This document shows, in pieces, positions 51,758 through 60,222 of a stretch of 64,000 nt of DNA. Below the pieces are notes generated by a model that was given only the letters and a program-made list of their open reading frames with translations, searched no databases and was not told the DNA's origin. The stretch spans positions 5,246 to 69,245 of the forward strand of contig JAFDZL010000468.1 of the NCBI GenBank assembly GCA_018266935.1, read 5' to 3'. A program made the translations under genes and the position numbers. Source of the stretch: Bacteroidota bacterium (GTDB taxonomy: Bacteria > Bacteroidota > Bacteroidia > Sphingobacteriales > Sphingobacteriaceae). Numbering within the stretch: position 1 is the first letter of the stretch; each line of letters begins with the position of its first letter.

Positions 51758-52135
51758 TTACACGTGCTGCAAAATAAACCCGGCATCCACATCAAGCTGA
51801 GTGTGTACAGCTTTTAAGAAATTCACATCGGGCTTTTGCTTGCCGGTCATGATCATGGAAAGTTTGGTATCGCTGATGTTGAGTTTCTTTGCCAGGTCCT
51901 TTTGTTTTAGGTGGAGCTCATACATGCGCATTTCGATCATGCCGGTAAGGGTTTGGGGCAGGGCTATGGTGTATTTGTTCTGCTCGTACTGCTGCGCGGC
52001 CAAAGCCAGTTCCCTGATCTCGGCCAGTTCTTCTTTCGAAACATTTTCGCTCCCTTTGGCCATCAGGCTGTCGATGTGGTTCATTACAGCTTTGTAATCG
52101 TGTTCGTTCTTGACGTTAGTGATTGTTTCCATCAA
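51758..52135 (-). CDS. XRE/HigA-type HTH protein (orphan antitoxin-like)
   Basis: The C-terminal HTH reads LKQKDLAKKLNISDTKLSMIMTGKQKP. No HigB-like partner is seen. Confidence 0.7.
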   Translation of the reverse strand: MMETITNVKNEHDYKAVMNHIDSLMAKGSENVSKEELAEIRELALAAQQYEQNKYTIALPQTLTGMIEMRMYELHLKQKDLAKKLNISDTKLSMIMTGKQKPDVNFLKAVHTQLDVDAGFILQHV

Positions 52136-52210
52136 TGATAAATTTAGATAAATAAAATTAATTTTAGCGTTTCTAAATTTTCGTTTTTGCCGGTAATAAT
52201 TTTATTTCAT

Positions 52211-52218
52211 TAAATTTG
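52211..52218 (+). promoter_or_regulatory. Candidate -7 box (TAAATTTG) 3 nt upstream of the ATG
   Basis: The 14-mer TAAATTTGTGTATG is identical to 62567-62580. Confidence 0.45.
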
Positions 52219-52221
52219 TGT

Positions 52222-52425
52222 ATGGAAACATTGATCATGCATCCGCAGAACGAAGAACAGGCATCAGCGTTGAAGGCGATTGCCAGGGCATGGAAAATTA
52301 GTGTTGAAACCAGCCCTTATAACCCCGACTTCGTAGCCAAAATAAAAGCAAGTAAAAAGGAAGCCGAAGCCGGAAAATTCACGACCCTCGATCCCGCTAA
52401 ATCCGTATGGGACAATTTAAAGTAA
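52222..52425 (+). CDS. Putative antitoxin of the YoeB-type toxin
   Basis: 67 aa (METLIMHPQNEEQ...). Overlaps the toxin gene by 19 nt. Confidence 0.55.
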   Translation: METLIMHPQNEEQASALKAIARAWKISVETSPYNPDFVAKIKASKKEAEAGKFTTLDPAKSVWDNLK

Positions 52426-52688
52426 TCGTATCCGATAAGGCTAAGAAGGACTTATTAGAAATACAAAAATCCGGCGACAAGGCGTCCATCAAAAAGGTAG
52501 AACAGATCATCAGCGAATTATACCTGCATCCCGAAACAGGTACGGGCAAACCCGAAAGGCTAAAATTTGAACTGGCGGGCTACTGGTCAAGGCGGATTAA
52601 TAAAAAAGACAGGCTGATCTATTTCATCGAGCATCATATTGTTACCGTCACAGTGGTTTCGGCCGTAGGGCATTACAGCGACAAATAA
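52407..52688 (+). CDS. yoeB: YoeB/Txe-family mRNA interferase toxin
   Basis: HPETGTGKPERLK...WSRRINKKDRLIY...GHY matches E. coli YoeB (GKGKPEPLK...WSRRITEEHRLVY...RYHY). Confidence 0.85.
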   Translation: MGQFKVIVSDKAKKDLLEIQKSGDKASIKKVEQIISELYLHPETGTGKPERLKFELAGYWSRRINKKDRLIYFIEHHIVTVTVVSAVGHYSDK

Positions 52689-52795: not shown

Positions 52796-53233
52796 ATGGA
52801 CGTGCACAGCAAGGAAACCCGCAGCTACAATATGTCGCGGATACGGAGTAAGGATACCAAGCCTGAAATGCTGGTTCGCAGGTTTCTGCACAAAAAAGGT
52901 TTTCGCTACCGGCTGCATGTAAAAGACCTGCCCGGCAAACCGGATATCGTATTGCCCAAATACAAAACTGTGATCTTTATACATGGATGTTTCTGGCATG
53001 GGCATGAGGGATGCAAATATTTTGTTGCTCCCCGTTCAAATAGAGAATACTGGCTACCAAAAATTATTAGGAATATTGAGCGCGATCAAACTGCTGAAAG
53101 GTTATTAAAAATTGAAGGTTGGAAGGTACTTAAGGCTTGGGAATGCCAATTAAAGAATAGTATAAGGAACAAAACCTTAGAATTTTTAATAGGGAGAATT
53201 AATGAAAATCATAATGTCCCTTGCAAGAAATAA
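52796..53233 (+). CDS. vsr: Very-short-patch repair endonuclease
   Basis: SRIRSKDTKPE, LPGKPDIVLPKYKTVIFIHGCFWHGHE.C and W..KI..N..RD motifs. Confidence 0.9.
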   Translation: MDVHSKETRSYNMSRIRSKDTKPEMLVRRFLHKKGFRYRLHVKDLPGKPDIVLPKYKTVIFIHGCFWHGHEGCKYFVAPRSNREYWLPKIIRNIERDQTAERLLKIEGWKVLKAWECQLKNSIRNKTLEFLIGRINENHNVPCKK

Positions 53234-54053
53234 GATGAACATTATTTTTTTCGACTACATAGCTTAATCTGTCCGTTATATTAATTCTTTTAGAAGCCTC
53301 TTTCCCGCGATTTAATAAATTTTCAGTTTGCCCCATCCCACCAGAAAAGGGATGCACTTCTATATCTTTCATGAGTAATAAAAGATATTTTAAGCTATCG
53401 AAATCCTCATCACGCCATTCTTTGAACTGGCCTATAAACCCGTTGTCAAAAGAAACAGAATAGCTCTGATAGTTTAAATATCTGACTATTAATTTTTCGG
53501 TGTCGATATGCTTCGAGTAAAACAAATTTGCCCACTCATTGAGTTCTATACTGCTTATATCGTCTAGTTGACATAAATTATATATTTCAAAAGAGTCGAT
53601 TACTTGATCATTTATTAATTTGTTGACTGTGATCTTTCGCTTTTGCCAGAACAGATGAGTATTTATGCTGATCGACGGAACTTGTTTGATATGAGCCACG
53701 GGGAGACCAATTGGCTCTTCATTAGTTGGAGAATCTGGATCAGCAATTTTATAATTGCTTTCGTAAAAAACTGACAACTCGATGTTATTTAAATCATCGA
53801 TAAAGGGACGCCTACATAATGATAGAACAGCGTTTTTGATCGTTGAATTATTTAGTGAGGTTATCCATTCCGAAAAATTTAAGGTGGTAGTTACTTGAAC
53901 AGACGAGTAATTTTGCGGGAAACAGATATGAGTAAACTCATATCTGTCTTTTGCTTCATTGAAAACTTTTAAAAATACCCTAATTTTTTCTTCTAAGATT
54001 TGACTGCTCTCTGACAACGGGTGGAACGAAAGTTCGTTAATAACAAGATCCAT
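53199..54053 (-). CDS. Unknown ~200-aa N-terminal domain fused to a C-terminal YoeB/RelE-type RNase domain (fourth gene of the cassette)
   Basis: The C-terminal FKEWRDEDFDSLKYLLLLMKDIEVHPFSGGMGQTENL...SKRINITDRLSYV...CKGHYDFH is collinear with YoeB. The ATG at 54053 lies 1 nt after the ATPase stop; an alternative ATG is at 54113. Confidence 0.75.
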   Translation of the reverse strand: MDLVINELSFHPLSESSQILEEKIRVFLKVFNEAKDRYEFTHICFPQNYSSVQVTTTLNFSEWITSLNNSTIKNAVLSLCRRPFIDDLNNIELSVFYESNYKIADPDSPTNEEPIGLPVAHIKQVPSISINTHLFWQKRKITVNKLINDQVIDSFEIYNLCQLDDISSIELNEWANLFYSKHIDTEKLIVRYLNYQSYSVSFDNGFIGQFKEWRDEDFDSLKYLLLLMKDIEVHPFSGGMGQTENLLNRGKEASKRINITDRLSYVVEKNNVHLISCKGHYDFH

Positions 54054-54054
54054 T

Positions 54055-55188
54055 CTAGATAAGTTTAAGCAATTGATTGCTCCATTCGTCAGTGAGGTGC
54101 CTGGGATATTCACTTAGTTCCCCATTCTTATCGACCGAAATATTAGTGATTTTAGAGTATTGTTCGCTTTCCTCAACCTGCTTCTCAAAGTAAAAAACAG
54201 CCGATCTGTCGATTAATTCGTTATTTTGTTTTATTGCCACCCTTATTCCATTCAATATATGATCGCTGTGTGTTTCTACAATGACCTGAACATCATTCAA
54301 CGCTGCCAGAGCTATTAATTTCCCAATTTCAGCTTGGCCCCGAGGATGAACATGAGATTCAGGATTTTCAATTATGATTAATTCACCTGATTTTGCAGCT
54401 AACAAGGACGTAACGACAGGCAATGCATAGGAAATTCCGAATCCAACGTTGTTTGGCTTAAACCTATTTGTGTTGCCAAAATTTGGTTGTTTAAAAACAT
54501 ATTCTAAAAGTACGAAATCAGAATTGGGCACGGACGTGGTTCGAATGTTAATATCTGGAGATATCTCACCCATCCATAGATTTATCTGATTTATCAAGGT
54601 CTTGTTTATCAATTCTTTATTAGTAATTGGATCAATTACTTTGGAAGATGAATGCAACATGTTGTCAAACGCAATATCGTCGTTTCCGTGCACTTCAATA
54701 AAGTGAGTTGTGTACTCTCCGTTATTACCAACGTTATTGTTTGATACAACGCTGGAATATGATTTACTATGAATTGAAGTAGGGTCTATACGACTTGCGT
54801 TTAGATACTGAAAGTTATTACTAAATAAAACCTCATTGAAAATATTCTCCGCAATTTCCTTTTGTTTTAGATTAAAGACATCAGCTTCAATTACATAGTT
54901 TGTCTCAAATAGTTGTTGTACGCCGTCCGTGAATGAAATATCAATAGATAAGCTTTCTTGTTTGCTATATTGATAAAGCGCGTCTTTAGTGTTGCCAATG
55001 CTGATGTAATAGCCATTTAGTTGTATTTCACCCAATCTTAATTTATCCGACTGTTTCAATAGTAATAGGGATTGGATAAATGTCGATTTGCCCATTCCAT
55101 TCAAACCCATGACAAGATTCAAATTTTTTAAAGCAAATTTGTTATTCTTGATGGACTTGAAATTCTTTATATGGATTGTTCTAATCAT
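54055..55188 (-). CDS. SMC/ABC-like AAA ATPase with a DUF3696-like C-terminal motif (third gene of the cassette)
   Basis: IKNFKSI...GLNGMGKST (Walker A), LIIIENPESHVHP (Walker B), VETHSDHILNGIR. Confidence 0.85.
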   Translation of the reverse strand: MIRTIHIKNFKSIKNNKFALKNLNLVMGLNGMGKSTFIQSLLLLKQSDKLRLGEIQLNGYYISIGNTKDALYQYSKQESLSIDISFTDGVQQLFETNYVIEADVFNLKQKEIAENIFNEVLFSNNFQYLNASRIDPTSIHSKSYSSVVSNNNVGNNGEYTTHFIEVHGNDDIAFDNMLHSSSKVIDPITNKELINKTLINQINLWMGEISPDINIRTTSVPNSDFVLLEYVFKQPNFGNTNRFKPNNVGFGISYALPVVTSLLAAKSGELIIIENPESHVHPRGQAEIGKLIALAALNDVQVIVETHSDHILNGIRVAIKQNNELIDRSAVFYFEKQVEESEQYSKITNISVDKNGELSEYPRHLTDEWSNQLLKLI

Positions 55189-56857
55189 TTTGAGTTATAT
55201 TTTCGATCAATTCAGAAATTCTCTCAAATCTATAAAGTACTCGGTTTCTATCGCTCGTTGACGTAGATATTGCGGCCTGGAAAGAGTTATCCTGAGTAAG
55301 TAAGCGAATAAATGCTCTAATAAAATCGTCTCTATTTTCTAAGATTCGTTCTTTTATTTCTGAATTTGCAAGTGCAAATAATACGGAAAAAACATCAAAC
55401 AATGCCTTGTTTATTGGTTTTTTTCTTGATGTATAAAGATCAATTTTTCTAAAAGAATTTACCCCAAACAACTCCGAGTTAAATGCCATCGACTGTGTGA
55501 AAGCATTTTTTATACTATTTTTTTCAGCGGCGGAAAGGTCATAGATTCTAGCCATTGCCTTGCTCATAAATGAATCCAGGTCAGGCGAATAATTCTGAAA
55601 TCCTAAGAGGTAGAATGCCAGAAATCGATTGGCAAAATCTCGGTCTAACATTCTTTGCGTTCTTATGGAATAGCTGGTTGCTTTTTTGAACTCATCGCTA
55701 TCAGCTAACTCTTTAATAAACTTTGCTGGTGCACCTTGATATAACGCATGCCGTATTTCTTGAGACTCTAAAATAAGTCCGCCGGTGTTAATTCTCTTGA
55801 AGATGTTAAACTTTACATCATCCGGAGTGCCGGGGTTAATAATATATGCAACAATTTGAGTTTCCTCAATTAAGCGTTGGAGGTCTCGGTCCAACTCATC
55901 GAAACCATAACCATTCAGTTGTGAGAGAAATTCAAGATTAGTAAGTTTCAATGTTTTATCTAAGGCAAAATTTCGAATACTACTAAGTCTCTGCAAGCCG
56001 TCTACTACAAGCCATTTGTTTTTATTCGAACCATCAAAATAAAATGCCGGGAGAGGAAATCTTATCAAAATTGATTCGATTAATCTGCTCTGTTTCGTCG
56101 CATCCCATAAGTCATCCTTCCTTTGAAATTCTGGGTACAGGTCTATTTCTGGTGGATTTTGTTTAAGTCTTTTTATGATTAAATCAATGTTAATAAGCCT
56201 ATTATCTATATTTATAAGTGATGGATCGAATGGTTTTTGCATCAATGAGGTTGAAATATCATTGATCTCCTCTTCCACATAGTCTAAAGTCGTTTCTCCT
56301 ACGTTATTATCCAAAATGGGTGGATTATAAACAAGCAATCTATCTAATTCAGGATACGTCAAATCTATGAATTCATATAACGCATGATCGACAGCATTTA
56401 AACAGTAAAACAATGCAGCAATGTCTTGCCTTGGCTCCTCCGGTTTTATAACCTGAACGGTTTGATTGCTATTTGTATTCAATCCTATTATCGGGATATT
56501 AGAGCACCAATAGTAGGCGGTACTATCAACGGCTAATACCTCATGCTTTTGTATCGATTTTTTTAAGACAAAGCCTAGTTCGAGATGAACAATCCAATCG
56601 TCATTATAATTCGGGCCTCCTTTTTTATCCCTTATTTTTCCAAAAGCTCGTAATCCTTGATCCCAAGCAGTGGGACTCCCTTTATTGTTATCAGAACCTA
56701 GCCAAATAAAGCAAAAAACACCAGATGTTACTTCCGATGGAACCTGTTTGCACTTTACGAATATTTCTACAGTTGGATTTTGTATACCTTTTCGGCTATC
56801 TATTGCAGTAATATCGTCGACGCTGTCTTTACCAAGTCGAATAATGCAAAACCTCAT
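55181..56857 (-). CDS. DUF262-domain protein with an uncharacterised ~200-aa N-terminal domain and no DUF1524/HNH half (second gene of the cassette)
   Basis: YPEFQRKDDLWDATKQSRLIESILIRFPLPAFYF...WLVVDGLQRLSSI is the DGQQR-type signature. Its stop overlaps the ATPase ATG as ATGATTAG. Confidence 0.85.
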   Translation of the reverse strand: MRFCIIRLGKDSVDDITAIDSRKGIQNPTVEIFVKCKQVPSEVTSGVFCFIWLGSDNNKGSPTAWDQGLRAFGKIRDKKGGPNYNDDWIVHLELGFVLKKSIQKHEVLAVDSTAYYWCSNIPIIGLNTNSNQTVQVIKPEEPRQDIAALFYCLNAVDHALYEFIDLTYPELDRLLVYNPPILDNNVGETTLDYVEEEINDISTSLMQKPFDPSLINIDNRLINIDLIIKRLKQNPPEIDLYPEFQRKDDLWDATKQSRLIESILIRFPLPAFYFDGSNKNKWLVVDGLQRLSSIRNFALDKTLKLTNLEFLSQLNGYGFDELDRDLQRLIEETQIVAYIINPGTPDDVKFNIFKRINTGGLILESQEIRHALYQGAPAKFIKELADSDEFKKATSYSIRTQRMLDRDFANRFLAFYLLGFQNYSPDLDSFMSKAMARIYDLSAAEKNSIKNAFTQSMAFNSELFGVNSFRKIDLYTSRKKPINKALFDVFSVLFALANSEIKERILENRDDFIRAFIRLLTQDNSFQAAISTSTSDRNRVLYRFERISELIENITQND

Positions 56858-56860
56858 TTT

Positions 56861-58114
56861 TTAAATTGCTTTAGCTAATGCCAAGTTTGATAGGCGCTCT
56901 AAGGAATTTTGTAACGGTTGAAATAATTCTCTGTTTTGACTTTCTACCCGCCTAAGAATTCCACGAGCGGCGACCGGACTTAGAAAATATTTCGAGTCTA
57001 TATTTTCAGTACTAATAATTGATATTAGGTTGGTAGTTACTTTATTGGAAGGAGCATCGTAAACTTTACAATCAAAAGCTTGATTTTTAGCAGATATCCC
57101 ACCTGTCCGCCACTTCAAATGTTCGTTGTCTGAATTTGAAATATCCTGACATCGGATGCCTTTTTTCGTAAAATCTTTATAGTTTGCTAACGTTGTATCA
57201 AGGTCATCTTCCATAGTCATTTGGAAGGCTTTTTTTATTCTTGTAGCTATCCACTCTATGACAGGAACAGACACAGCGTTTCCAATGGCATGATACCTTA
57301 AGCTGTCGTAATCCAAAATGTTAGTTTTTGAAAATGTTTCGGGCGACGTCCAGTTTTTAGGAAAGCCTTGCAACGCCTCCGCCTCTGACGGGATCAGTCT
57401 TCTGACGGCTTCATCATAACAAATATATGTTCTGCTCCAATCTGTTCCGGTATGTCTGCCTGAGGTAGCAGCCAAACAATAGGCCAATGAAGGAACAGTG
57501 AAACCGGCTATATCATTTTTGTGTGGGGTTACAAATTCGCTTCTTGGCGAGCCCGTTTTTTCTGAACCATTGAATTCATGTAGGACATATGCCGCTTTAT
57601 TTACATTGTTTTTCCAAGCGCATATATAAACTCTCTGCCTTGATTGAGGCACTCCAAAAAACTTACTATTAAATACTCGCCATGAAACCCCGTAACCTAA
57701 ATTATTAAATGAATCCAGGATGATCCTGAAGTCGTTGCCGTTATGGGAACTAAGGAGGCCTAAGACATTTTCAAGCAAAACAACATCCGGCATCCTCTTT
57801 TCTATTAATTGCAAAAAATCGTAAAATAAACCAGAGTTTTTGCCTTTAAGGCCTTGCCTGCCCATTGAGCCTCTAGCTACTGACACATCTTGGCAGGGAA
57901 ATCCTGCACACCAGATTTTTGCTTCGGGGAGAGAGCCCGGGTCAACACTTAAAATGTCATAATCACATATTGTCCGAGGCCAGTGTTTCTTTAAGACAGA
58001 TTGACAAAATTGATTTATCTCGCATTGATAGGTGATTTTAAAACCTTGTCTTTCAAAGCCTAAGTCAAACCCGCCAATGCCAGTGAAAAACGAATTAACA
58101 GAAAGTTTTGCCAT
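56861..58114 (-). CDS. dcm: DNA (cytosine-5)-methyltransferase (first gene of the cassette)
   Basis: Motif I FTGIGGFDLGF, IV GFPCQDVS, VI LLENV, VIII QSRQRVYI, X GNAVSVPV, then a ~130-aa tail after motif X. Start taken at MAKLSVNSF; the ORF is open up to 58174. Confidence 0.9.
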   Translation of the reverse strand: MAKLSVNSFFTGIGGFDLGFERQGFKITYQCEINQFCQSVLKKHWPRTICDYDILSVDPGSLPEAKIWCAGFPCQDVSVARGSMGRQGLKGKNSGLFYDFLQLIEKRMPDVVLLENVLGLLSSHNGNDFRIILDSFNNLGYGVSWRVFNSKFFGVPQSRQRVYICAWKNNVNKAAYVLHEFNGSEKTGSPRSEFVTPHKNDIAGFTVPSLAYCLAATSGRHTGTDWSRTYICYDEAVRRLIPSEAEALQGFPKNWTSPETFSKTNILDYDSLRYHAIGNAVSVPVIEWIATRIKKAFQMTMEDDLDTTLANYKDFTKKGIRCQDISNSDNEHLKWRTGGISAKNQAFDCKVYDAPSNKVTTNLISIISTENIDSKYFLSPVAARGILRRVESQNRELFQPLQNSLERLSNLALAKAI

Positions 58115-58357
58115 GATATTCTTTGTTTCACAAATTAACATAAAAGGTTTGTATTTGTATGTTTTATTAATCAAGACATGCGACCTTTATTAACATGTGT
58201 TTATGGGTGAATTCGGTGGCCCTAATGTGTTACTAGTCTGCAATCACGTGGAGGATCGAAACAGTTATCCGCTCCGTGCTTAATCCAATGCCTCACAGAC
58301 ATGCATGTTACATCTCATGTGTTCAGCGCGTAATGTCTAACAACCCCATATTCGCCC

Positions 58358-58909
58358 ATGCCCAAATACCTAACCCTCGCCCTCATCCTCCTAAGCCTTT
58401 CCACCCTGAAAACCTACGCGCTCCCGATAGCTATCGGGACCCCGCACGATGATTCGGTAAAAAAGATAGCTATCGCCGATGCGCGGAAATTCAGGCTGGA
58501 CAAGGAACGGCTCAGCATTTTTAGGAAAAGCGCCCGCCAAATGATTCGAGACTATTATTTCCCCGGCGGCCGGCCACGCCCCAGCCTGCGCCCGCCCACC
58601 CCGCCGATCGACTTAGCCACTACCCAACGGGACCTGCGTGCGCGTCGTGATGGCTTCCAGGTCTATCGCCGCCAGCGCGAACTGGCGTCGGACTTTTTTA
58701 AGCCCATACCGTCGGCCGTGAGCGATACGTCGTTGCTGCGCGATTCGGTGTACGTAGCCGCTTACCGCGAAGAAGCCTGGAAACGCACCCGCCGCCGCCG
58801 CACTTTCGGGCACTATGCAATCATTGGCGGTTCAGTGGTTGGCGGCGCTACGGTTATAGCCGGGTTTGTGGCTTTAATGCTTGCGCTGAGCAGGATTAAA
58901 GTGGGATAG
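58358..58909 (+). CDS. Hypothetical secreted/C-terminally TM-anchored protein (paralogue of 59152)
   Basis: Shares IADARKF+LDK...DYFKP...VSDT.LL+DSVYV.AYR...GHY..+GG with the 59152 ORF. Confidence 0.5.
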   Translation: MPKYLTLALILLSLSTLKTYALPIAIGTPHDDSVKKIAIADARKFRLDKERLSIFRKSARQMIRDYYFPGGRPRPSLRPPTPPIDLATTQRDLRARRDGFQVYRRQRELASDFFKPIPSAVSDTSLLRDSVYVAAYREEAWKRTRRRRTFGHYAIIGGSVVGGATVIAGFVALMLALSRIKVG

Positions 58910-59151
58910 GAAGTCCCGCGCGTGCGGGATCGGGGTGAGTCTGCGCGGAGGTGGGCATAGTTCGTAAAAGAAGCATCGCCCTTTGCGAGAACATTGGGGT
59001 CAATTGATTTGCATGTGCAGTCCCGATAGCTATCGGGATCGTTCCTCGCAAGGACGTGGCGGGAACTAATTCGCGCGAGCGATGGCAACGAACAGCGGCC
59101 CATGCCTAAGGCCGCGTTTGGGCGTCTTGAATTTTAACTATATCTTGCCTG

Positions 59152-59541
59152 ATGCGCAAATACTTAATTTTTACCCTGGCCGTTCCGATCCTTTTCTTTT
59201 CAAAAGTGCAGGCACAGACGCTGCCGGCAGATTCGATAAAAAATATGGCCGTTGCCGATGCGCGGAAATTCAAACTGGATAAGGCTGATTTTGAGATCTT
59301 CAGGCATAACCGCCGCAATTCCGGGTCGGATTATTTTAAACCGGGCAAGCCGGCCGTCAGCGATACCGCGCTGTTAAAGGATTCGGTTTATGTAAAGGCC
59401 TACCGCACGGCGGCCTACGCCAAAACACGCCACCGGCATACCGCAGGGCATTACATTTTGCTGGGCGGGGTCGCCGTAACGGTGGTGCTGCTCGTCGCCC
59501 TGGCAGCGGCTTCTAATTCGGTTTTAACGGGTTATCATTAA
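59152..59541 (+). CDS. Hypothetical secreted/C-terminally TM-anchored protein (paralogue of 58358)
   Basis: Signal peptide ...FFSKVQAQ and a C-terminal TM segment. See the paralogue at 58358. Confidence 0.5.
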   Translation: MRKYLIFTLAVPILFFSKVQAQTLPADSIKNMAVADARKFKLDKADFEIFRHNRRNSGSDYFKPGKPAVSDTALLKDSVYVKAYRTAAYAKTRHRHTAGHYILLGGVAVTVVLLVALAAASNSVLTGYH

Positions 59542-59618
59542 ATCCGGAGGCAGGAGGCAGTACAGCTCGAGGGAAAAACCCGCTCGTGGATCGATTTTGA
59601 TTTCGGAACCGATTGTTG

Positions 59619-59626
59619 TAAATTTG
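59619..59626 (+). promoter_or_regulatory. Candidate -7 box (TAAATTTG) 3 nt upstream of the ATG
   Basis: TAAATTTGgttATG has the same geometry as at 52211 and 62567. Confidence 0.45.
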
Positions 59627-59629
59627 GTT

Positions 59630-59863
59630 ATGGTACGCACAATTATAACACCTGAAAATACGAGTGTAAAGCTGTCTATTCCGCCTGATTATGTCGGCAA
59701 AAAGATAGAGGTACTGTATTATCCTGTTGACGAAGTAACCGAAGAGCAACAACCGGCTGCAAAAACCATGTCGGCCTTCAAAGGTATATTATCTGAGGCG
59801 GAAGGGAACGCATTGCAGGAATATGTGAAAAGATCAAGGGAGGAATGGGACAGTCGTTTTTAA
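59630..59863 (+). CDS. Putative VapB-type antitoxin
   Basis: MVRTIITPENTSVKLSIPPDYVGKKIEV..., 77 aa. Its stop overlaps the toxin ATG as TAATG. Confidence 0.6.
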   Translation: MVRTIITPENTSVKLSIPPDYVGKKIEVLYYPVDEVTEEQQPAAKTMSAFKGILSEAEGNALQEYVKRSREEWDSRF

Positions 59864-60222
59864 TGGATACCAATGTCATCATTGGTTATTTAAGTAAACT
59901 CCTTCCCGCTGAAGCGTCAGCATCCATAGATCAGCTTCCTGCTGTCATATCAGTCATTACCCGCATAGAACTACTTGGTTGGTACAATGCAACACCCGCC
60001 CAATTGGAAAAGCTTCAATTGTTCATCGGTAATGCGCAGGTTTACGATCTCAATGAAGAAATTATTGTTCAAACGATCACTTTGAGGCAACAGCACAAAA
60101 TAAAGCTGCCCGACGCTGTTATTGCTGCAACCGCTTTGGTGTACGATCATACTTTACTCACCCGCAATACCGGAGATTTTAAAAATATCATTGGTCTGCG
60201 CATGGAAAGTCCGTGGGCATGA
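59863..60222 (+). CDS. vapC: PIN-domain toxin (VapC family)
   Basis: MDTNVIIGYL, ...ISVITRIELL... and LLTRNTGDF show the PIN acidic-residue pattern. Confidence 0.85.
   Translation: MDTNVIIGYLSKLLPAEASASIDQLPAVISVITRIELLGWYNATPAQLEKLQLFIGNAQVYDLNEEIIVQTITLRQQHKIKLPDAVIAATALVYDHTLLTRNTGDFKNIIGLRMESPWA

Follow-up and report, generated by a model that had tools for sequence, protein, structure and literature searches.

What is a DNA methyltransferase doing at the head of an operon whose last gene encodes a toxin-like RNase? The question is raised by a 64,000-nucleotide (nt) stretch of a Bacteroidota bacterium genome (GCA_018266935.1, contig JAFDZL010000468.1, positions 5,246 to 69,245; hereafter the window). 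Here four minus-strand genes, encoding a C5-cytosine DNA methyltransferase (MTase), a DUF262 protein, an ATPase and a YoeB-fusion protein, are packed head to tail, and a vsr gene converges on the last of them. The answer favoured here, which we regard as probable, is that the cassette is a methylase-coupled Type II Menshen system. In such a system the MTase would mark self DNA, an extra N-terminal domain on the sensor NsnA would detect unmethylated sites, and the ATPase NsnB would release a YoeB-type RNase.

Menshen genes and their link to a methylase

By their profile matches, the DUF262, ATPase and YoeB-fusion genes are nsnA, nsnB and nsnC of the named anti-phage system Menshen. The PADLOC profiles matched NsnA at 2e-133 (residues 193-556), NsnB at 1.1e-103 (full length) and NsnC at 2.7e-30 (residues 21-196), and the A-B-C order on one strand is kept in 80 related genome loci. 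Protection against phages has been shown only for the prototype, from Solibacillus silvestris StLB046 (Millman et al. 2022, cited in PMC12065111), and the family has been the subject of an in-depth comparative study (Li et al., NAR 2025, PMC12065111). That study assigns the sensor role to NsnA (ParB-DUF262 plus ParBDB) and the transducer role to NsnB, an ABC ATPase with an E-N Walker B; NsnC is described as a PIN-like domain followed by an effector domain, with YoeB among nine BECR families. Systems whose NsnA carries an extra N-terminal sensor domain, 23% of the total, are termed 'Type II'. By its sequence, the cassette falls into this Type II class of Li et al. 2025; its effector is of the YoeB kind, and it comes with a C5-MTase and Vsr.

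A preliminary description of this DNA had presented the cassette as an unnamed four-gene architecture. That claim is withdrawn here because the three middle genes map onto Menshen in PADLOC, the very ground named beforehand for giving it up. The same description had overlooked the extra N-terminal domain of NsnA, the part that links the methylase to the remaining genes. In annotation, Menshen plus MTase/Vsr is the appropriate name for the cassette, not that of a new system.

'Solitary methylases' have been noted beside some Menshen operons, and their cooperation with Menshen was posed as a question and left unanswered (PMC12065111). In the window, NsnA residues 1-172 lie outside the NsnA profile and form a separate domain (hereafter the N-domain), which is kept in 26 full-length homologues. 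Genomes were scanned with NsnA, giving 80 loci, and metagenomes with the N-domain alone, giving 74. The 73 testable N-domain loci include the genome locus of Mucilaginibacter galii and leave out two metagenome loci at a contig end; at 90% identity the N-domain loci form 54 clusters. A same-strand orthologue of the C5-MTase (42-69% identity) lies upstream in all 73, with gene ends no more than 600 base pairs (bp) apart (median 39 bp). M. galii is the sole N-domain carrier among the 80 genome loci, and no other of the 80 has the orthologous MTase, which in M. galii is 63% identical and overlaps nsnA by 4 nt. Furthermore, the pairwise distances of the N-domain and of the MTase are correlated, with r = 0.96.

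NsnA proteins lacking an N-terminal extension, found at 70 of the 80 genome loci, served as a control. No C5-MTase was found upstream of nsnA at any of these 70 by tblastn or Pfam, and the only tblastn matches to a C5-MTase in the control set, at L024 and L069, belong to loci whose NsnA proteins carry other N-terminal extensions. Similarly, PF00145 was absent as the gene upstream of extension-less nsnA from all 42 loci with a called upstream gene. A separate observation on the same set is that hsdS (Methylase_S, the Type I S subunit) lies directly upstream of extension-less nsnA at 11 of the 42 (L003-L079), which indicates that Type I restriction-modification (R-M) operons harbour many of the 'Type I' Menshen systems.

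N-terminal extensions of at least 100 amino acids (aa) occur in NsnA at ten of the 80 genome loci, and at five of these a DNA MTase abuts upstream. The enzymes at the five loci are one C5-MTase, a Vsr plus C5-MTase pair twice (L022, from 5507, and L024, from 5882), two C5-MTases together, and one D12-class N6-adenine MTase (L060, from 5635). The paired C5-MTases precede a 700-aa NsnA at L069 (4872-11087), and a further locus, L157 (2207-8617), combines a helix-turn-helix controller-like gene, two C5-MTases and NsnABC.

The cassette also recurs as a whole. In another Mucilaginibacter assembly (L158), a 95%-identical copy, convergent vsr included, has different chromosomal surroundings, and on sequence comparison the MTase, Vsr and NsnABC are one mobile low-G+C unit. 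The co-occurrence check proposed in the preliminary description came out in favour of a real association: the MTase-NsnA-NsnB-NsnC unit is found again in other genomes and metagenomes with differing flanks, and the juxtaposition is therefore not due to chance.

These data bear directly on a simpler explanation, in which the MTase and Vsr are an orphan or decayed remnant of a Type II R-M system and Menshen is independent, with an unrelated trigger. Defence genes do cluster, with 27.9% of Menshen operons lying near BREX, R-M systems or methylases in a survey in which functional coupling was not shown (PMC12065111), and toxin-antitoxin pairs flank the cassette in the window. Given the co-occurrence statistics, however, such chance clustering is disfavoured, and we rate it as very improbable. 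The MTase and nsnA are separated by 3 nt in the window and share 4 nt in M. galii, all four genes travel together between contexts, and the linkage at 73 of 73 loci tracks the N-domain and not Menshen as such. In addition, no remnant of a restriction endonuclease was found within the cassette by open reading frame (ORF) and Pfam scan.

The N-terminal domain and what it may sense

The N-domain contains two invariant loops, GSDNNKGxPTxW and SNQT. It has no real Pfam match (E up to 1) and none in a PDB profile search, where matches to antibody heavy chains are noise. An AlphaFold model of the N-domain alone was obtained with a predicted local distance difference test score (pLDDT) of 87.7 and a predicted template modelling score (pTM) of 0.86. 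Foldseek returned weak matches only, the best being the YTH domain of T. gammatolerans McrB (6p0g; E 0.07, TM 0.43); further neighbours were the UHRF1 SRA domain, Lon-N and TagI, all with E no better than 0.07 and TM no higher than 0.43. From this model the fold can tentatively be described as a PUA-like barrel (YTH/SRA-like). A B3 fold, which was expected after LlaJI.R1, was not among the Foldseek matches, which were weak and PUA-like.

The N-domain family is small, with 146 representatives among 1.84 billion proteins, and the domain is nearly always N-terminal. Most of the 48 complete N-domain proteins, 34 in all, belong to AAA_5 and match McrB GTPases of solved structure; only nine are NsnA. 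The downstream partners of N-domain genes are RE_LlaJI (8), McrBC (8), DUF2357 plus PD-(D/E)xK (9) and NsnB-type ATPases (8). Family membership, motifs and co-occurrence are matters of observation, as is the domain common to the window and McrB/LlaJI-type systems. None of the five window proteins matched AAA_5, McrBC or RE_LlaJI in Pfam.

The McrB connection is informative because of what is established for such enzymes. LlaJI, LlaI and BsuMI are McrBC-like, cut specific sites when these are unmodified and need companion methylases (PMC12707154, PMC1459862, PMC7680126, bioRxiv 10.64898/2026.08.31.748284). McrB GTPases are widely associated with methylases, and this association is probably ancestral (Bell et al., PMC11090510). 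In the N-domain tree, NsnA-fused copies occupy at least three positions among McrB-fused ones, which indicates that the reader-plus-methylase pair has moved repeatedly between effector types. By its domain make-up, an NsnA variant (P0036; L155, 763-2379) is a second, independent case of reader-domain exchange between McrB and NsnA: it is fused to an E. coli-type McrB_N (PF12102) domain, which binds 5-methylcytosine (5mC), and has no adjacent methylase. The broader proposal is that of an R-M-like system with a ribosome-dependent RNase as its 'restriction' arm, in which a PUA-like domain, with or on the C5-methylase, would sense unmethylated sites, and of a cartridge swapped at least three times between McrBC/LlaJI and Menshen. 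Taken as a whole, we hold this proposal to be evenly balanced between true and false.

In the favoured scheme, the MTase would methylate a short site across the host chromosome, and Vsr would repair the T:G mismatches left by deamination of 5mC. The N-domain, whose proposed role is that of a methylation-sensitive specificity module, would recognise MTase sites that arrive unmethylated on phage or plasmid DNA. The DUF262 NTPase and the DNA-binding domain of NsnA would engage the DNA and pass a signal to the NsnB ATPase, as in the literature model. NsnB would then release or activate NsnC, whose YoeB-type domain would cleave mRNA on the ribosome and halt translation, and the expected outcome would be abortive infection or growth arrest. 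As a corollary, loss of the MTase with NsnABC retained should be toxic, so that the cassette might also act as an addiction module. It is the direction of methylation sensitivity, the signalling steps and the RNase activity that we infer here. The preliminary description had outlined a similar mechanism; its domain calls hold, and its logic of self-marking, sensing and RNase output is backed by the comparative data (the 73 of 73 loci and the LlaJI/McrBC pairing), whereas its attribution of that mechanism to a new system is not.

Several points weigh against this scheme. The weak fold neighbours of the N-domain (YTH, SRA) are modified-base readers, and taken at face value the model suggests that the domain binds methylated DNA. 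PUA-type domains on NsnA have likewise been proposed to read modified phage bases in the study of Li et al., which leaves open how NsnA detects infection (PMC12065111); signalling from NsnA to NsnB is an open matter in the literature too. Five of the ten NsnA proteins with N-terminal extensions have no adjacent methylase, and methylase coupling is therefore not general to Type II Menshen. The extension-less control is solid for C5-MTases and covers, for N6 types, the 25 commonest upstream Pfam families only. Finally, co-inheritance cannot tell a DNA reader from a domain that docks on the MTase.

The first of these points leads to a Type IV-like explanation, in which the N-domain binds 5mC, 5-hydroxymethylcytosine or similar bases in phage DNA, with the methylase and Vsr as a separate affair. 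It would agree with the best Foldseek neighbours (TgMcrB YTH, UHRF1 SRA and TagI), with the sensing of modified DNA by the DUF262 proteins GmrSD and SspE (PMC12065111) and with the P0036 NsnA, where the 5mC-binding McrB_N has no methylase beside it. We consider it improbable nonetheless. A 5mC reader permanently coupled to an enzyme that writes 5mC into the host chromosome would turn on its own host, above all in the 34 McrB-nuclease versions, and this explanation is ranked low because such an arrangement would be self-destructive. Adjacency at 73 of 73 loci together with co-divergence is unexpected of unrelated neighbours, and the fold matches are below significance.

The last point leads to a variant that keeps the R-M logic and moves the recognition: the N-domain would dock NsnA- and McrB-like motors onto the MTase, and recognition would fall to the MTase, the part played by Mod for Res in Type III systems. 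Tightly correlated N-domain and MTase distances and the strict adjacency would both be expected of docking partners, and no solved DNA-binding domain is a significant match to the N-domain. The MTase also continues for about 115 aa beyond motif X (56861-57210); this C-terminal extension is present in all 56 aligned family members, carries a highly conserved block, KYFLSPVAARGILRR (KYFLSPxAxRGILRR), and could be the docking surface for the N-domain. On the other hand, the characterised reading function of LlaJI and LlaI lies in the restriction subunit and not in the methylase, the weak fold neighbours of the N-domain are all nucleic-acid readers, and its conserved flexible loops appear to be base-contacting. 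On balance, docking of this kind seems unlikely, although clearly less so than sensing of modified bases.

If sensing of unmethylated sites by the N-domain is true, it would identify what one Menshen subtype senses. It would also mean that a PUA-like fold, otherwise known for modified-base reading, can report the absence of methylation, and that a self/non-self cartridge of methylase and reader is pluggable into effectors as different as McrBC-type DNA cutters and an mRNA interferase gated by an ATPase. Some of the 'orphan' methylases beside defence genes would be accounted for in this way. What is new here is a testable hypothesis on the trigger of this subtype and a small, undescribed domain that travels with a methylase between McrBC-type and Menshen effectors.

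Components, gene layout and surroundings

The NsnA core carries the motifs QRxxxW (FQRKDDLW), DGxQR (DGLQR) and FxxxN (FKRIN), all invariant in 27 homologues. Its sole Pfam match is GmrSD_N (DUF262; 7.6e-21). A Pfam search found no DUF1524/HNH domain in NsnA, in line with the preliminary description, and the C-terminal half fits the NsnA profile instead, with a helical DNA-binding (ParBDB) domain predicted at the C-terminus. A GmrSD-type Type IV enzyme was considered and ruled out, since DUF1524 was not found. A model of full-length NsnA matched BrxU (best), ParB and SspE in Foldseek; these matches are dominated by the ParB/DUF262 part and are silent on the N-domain.

NsnB contains a Walker A motif (GLNGMGKST), a Walker B motif IIIEN (LIIIENPE) and an H-loop (ETHSDH). 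Its Pfam matches, AAA_15 (9e-22), AAA_21 (6e-19) and DUF3696 (1.7e-10), agree with the earlier call of a DUF3696-like SMC/ABC-like ATPase, and the E-N Walker B variant agrees with the description in PMC12065111. Membership of MADS was rejected: the NCBIfam MAD3 model scored 45 bits against a cut-off of 420, and only the common P-loop N-terminus is shared.

NsnC consists of an N-terminal NsnC-type domain (53499-54053) and a C-terminal YoeB/RelE-type RNase domain (53211-53447). The former is called PIN-like (inactive) in the literature, where its activity status is disputed. The latter, already recognised in the preliminary description, matches Pfam YoeB_toxin (7.8e-10, residues 223-301 in the 304-aa numbering) and aligns end to end with the solved YoeB chains 8yxv, 6l8e and 2a6q, through the terminal His-Tyr. 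The YoeB catalytic positions are occupied by E264, R282, H300 and Y301, and conservation of these residues extends to 13 NsnC homologues; against TIGR02116 the protein scored 34 bits, under the equivalog cut-off of 51.8. No YefM/Axe antitoxin gene lies directly upstream of the YoeB domain, the upstream gene being nsnB. YoeB-type NsnC is present in several genome loci without a methylase (80-locus NsnA scan), so the type of effector is independent of the methylase.

A free-standing toxin-antitoxin-like pair is encoded beside vsr, 500 bp from the NsnC YoeB domain (52216-52688, plus strand), where a DUF2683 protein (69 aa, 3.4e-22) overlaps a toxin of the YoeB/ParE-like kind (93 aa, YoeB_toxin 5.7e-18). 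Over 68 aa, this toxin and the YoeB domain of NsnC are 34% identical.

The MTase matched Pfam DNA_methylase (1e-60), TIGR00675 (213 bits, above the cut-off) and PADLOC MTase_II (2.9e-72), and motifs I, IV, VI, VIII and X can be aligned with those of M.HhaI, as expected from the canonical motifs noted earlier. The Dcm label it had been given does not hold: PRK10458 scored 72 bits against a cut-off of 710, and the enzyme is a generic C5-MTase, not a true Dcm orthologue. Vsr was identified correctly, with matches to Pfam Vsr (8e-36) and TIGR00632 (156 bits, cut-off 97.85). Vsr enzymes repair T:G mismatches that arise from deamination of 5-methylcytosine. The window therefore holds a pairing of the Dcm-Vsr type, a C5-MTase with canonical motifs and a Vsr, both above their NCBIfam cut-offs.

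The convergent vsr is also present in L158 and L159, both with 95%-identical cassettes, is absent from the M. galii cassette (L001), and was detected in 11 of the 54 N-domain locus clusters. At L158 (GCA_035547095.1, DASZVE010000091.1; 13203-13592, minus strand) the public gene calls omit a vsr that is 84% identical to that of the window by tblastn, and give a 91-aa ORF on the opposite strand.

All five ORFs, the four cassette genes on the minus strand and the convergent vsr, were confirmed at the coordinates first assigned to them (Table 1), as were the four junctions. The full nsnA gene spans 55181-56857 and encodes 558 aa. The MTase stop and the nsnA start are separated by the 3-nt gap mentioned above, nsnA and nsnB overlap by 8 nt, nsnB and nsnC are 1 nt apart, and nsnC overlaps vsr convergently by 35 nt. 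The last gene had been given 304 aa, a length that corresponds to an upstream GTG start. Its start is most likely the ATG listed in Table 1, because the 1-nt gap, the onset of the NsnC profile and the gene calls in two 95%-identical relatives agree on it.

The G+C content is 0.34-0.40 across the four cassette genes (0.36 overall), against 0.54 in glnS and 0.46 in the whole window. The contrast with glnS that had been reported is therefore real, whereas the 0.53-0.58 ascribed to the 5' part of vsr is not, its 5' half having a G+C content of 0.48.

Table 1. Coordinates of the cassette features in the window
Feature	Coordinates	Strand	Remarks
C5-cytosine DNA methyltransferase	56861..58114	-	417 aa from ATG; ORF reaches TTG at 58174
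NsnA extra N-terminal domain, residues 1-172	56342..56857	-	no Pfam family; tentative PUA-like predicted fold
NsnA core (DUF262 NTPase + ParBDB)	55181..56221	-	PADLOC NsnA; Pfam GmrSD_N
NsnB ABC-type ATPase + DUF3696 tail, 377 aa	54055..55188	-	PADLOC NsnB; Pfam AAA_15, AAA_21, DUF3696
NsnC effector, 284 aa from ATG at 54053 (most likely start)	53199..54053	-	PADLOC NsnC; Pfam YoeB_toxin
Vsr very-short-patch repair endonuclease	52796..53233	+	Pfam Vsr; TIGR00632

The cassette lies downstream of glnS, among toxin-antitoxin pairs, and neither a tRNA gene nor convincing flanking direct repeats were found at the island borders in the window. Divergent from the DUF2683/YoeB-like pair, an HTH_3 protein of 125 aa is encoded on the minus strand (51758-52217), and an operator-like 21-nt inverted repeat (52140-52160 / 52197-52217) lies in the intergenic region between this gene and the pair. 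On the far side of the cassette (59597-60222, plus strand), an 88-aa ORF overlaps the gene for a PIN-domain protein (125 aa, PIN 1.9e-11), forming a VapBC-like pair. Two paralogous, high-G+C small proteins of 183 and 129 aa (35% identical, E 2e-25) are encoded at 58358-59541 on the plus strand; they have signal-like N-termini and a hydrophobic C-terminal stretch and belong to no Pfam family. Two copies of a perfect 18-nt palindrome, TCCCGATAGCTATCGGGA, are found 599 bp apart, at 58422 and 59021.

Comparison with known systems

The window shares with the Menshen prototype of S. silvestris the A-B-C gene order, an NsnA made of a DUF262/ParB NTPase and ParBDB, an NsnB made of an ABC ATPase and DUF3696, and an NsnC with an NsnC-type N-terminus, called PIN-like in the literature, and a BECR-type RNase C-terminus. 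The prototype is a 'Type I' system, with no extra domain on NsnA, a PB-BECR1 (YafQ-like) effector and no dedicated methylase, whereas the window has a 172-aa N-terminal domain on NsnA, a YoeB-family end on NsnC, and an attached C5-MTase and vsr. Closer are the Type II systems with PS-PUA1 or PS-PUA2 (PMC12065111), which have a PUA-like extra domain on NsnA where the window has a tentatively PUA-like one that may belong to the same class; YoeB is among the NsnC C-terminal families of Type II systems in that study, as in the window. The two differ in interpretation. There the PUA domains are read as sensors of modified bases, while the domain of the window type occurs strictly together with one MTase family, an association that favours the sensing of unmethylated sites.

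GmrSD, BrxU and SspE share with NsnA the DUF262 NTPase with QRxxxW and DGxQR and a helical middle domain, and BrxU is the best structural match to the NsnA model. They are, however, DUF262-DUF1524 single-polypeptide DNases triggered by modified DNA, and NsnA lacks the DUF1524/HNH half. The YoeB-YefM toxin-antitoxin system has in common with the NsnC C-terminus the YoeB toxin fold and the Glu, Arg, His and Tyr catalytic positions. In NsnC the YoeB domain is instead fused behind an N-terminal domain of about 200 aa and has no paired YefM-type antitoxin; its control presumably lies with NsnB.

In LlaJI, LlaI and BsuMI, one or more cytosine methylases come first in the operon and are followed by a protein with a site-recognising N-terminal domain, an order like that of the window. 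LlaJI-type systems then deploy a McrB GTPase and a McrC/LlaJI nuclease, whereas in the window the putative reader is fused to NsnA and the predicted output is an RNase. The readers differ as well, that of LlaJI.R1 being a B3 domain and the N-domain having given PUA-like matches, not B3 ones.

A parallel at the level of logic is offered by PrrC-EcoprrI and RloC, anticodon nucleases held by Type I R-M systems. As proposed for the window, they couple an R-M-type self/non-self apparatus to an RNase that stops translation, although the proteins are unrelated and the trigger of PrrC is a phage inhibitor of the restriction enzyme, not unmethylated DNA.

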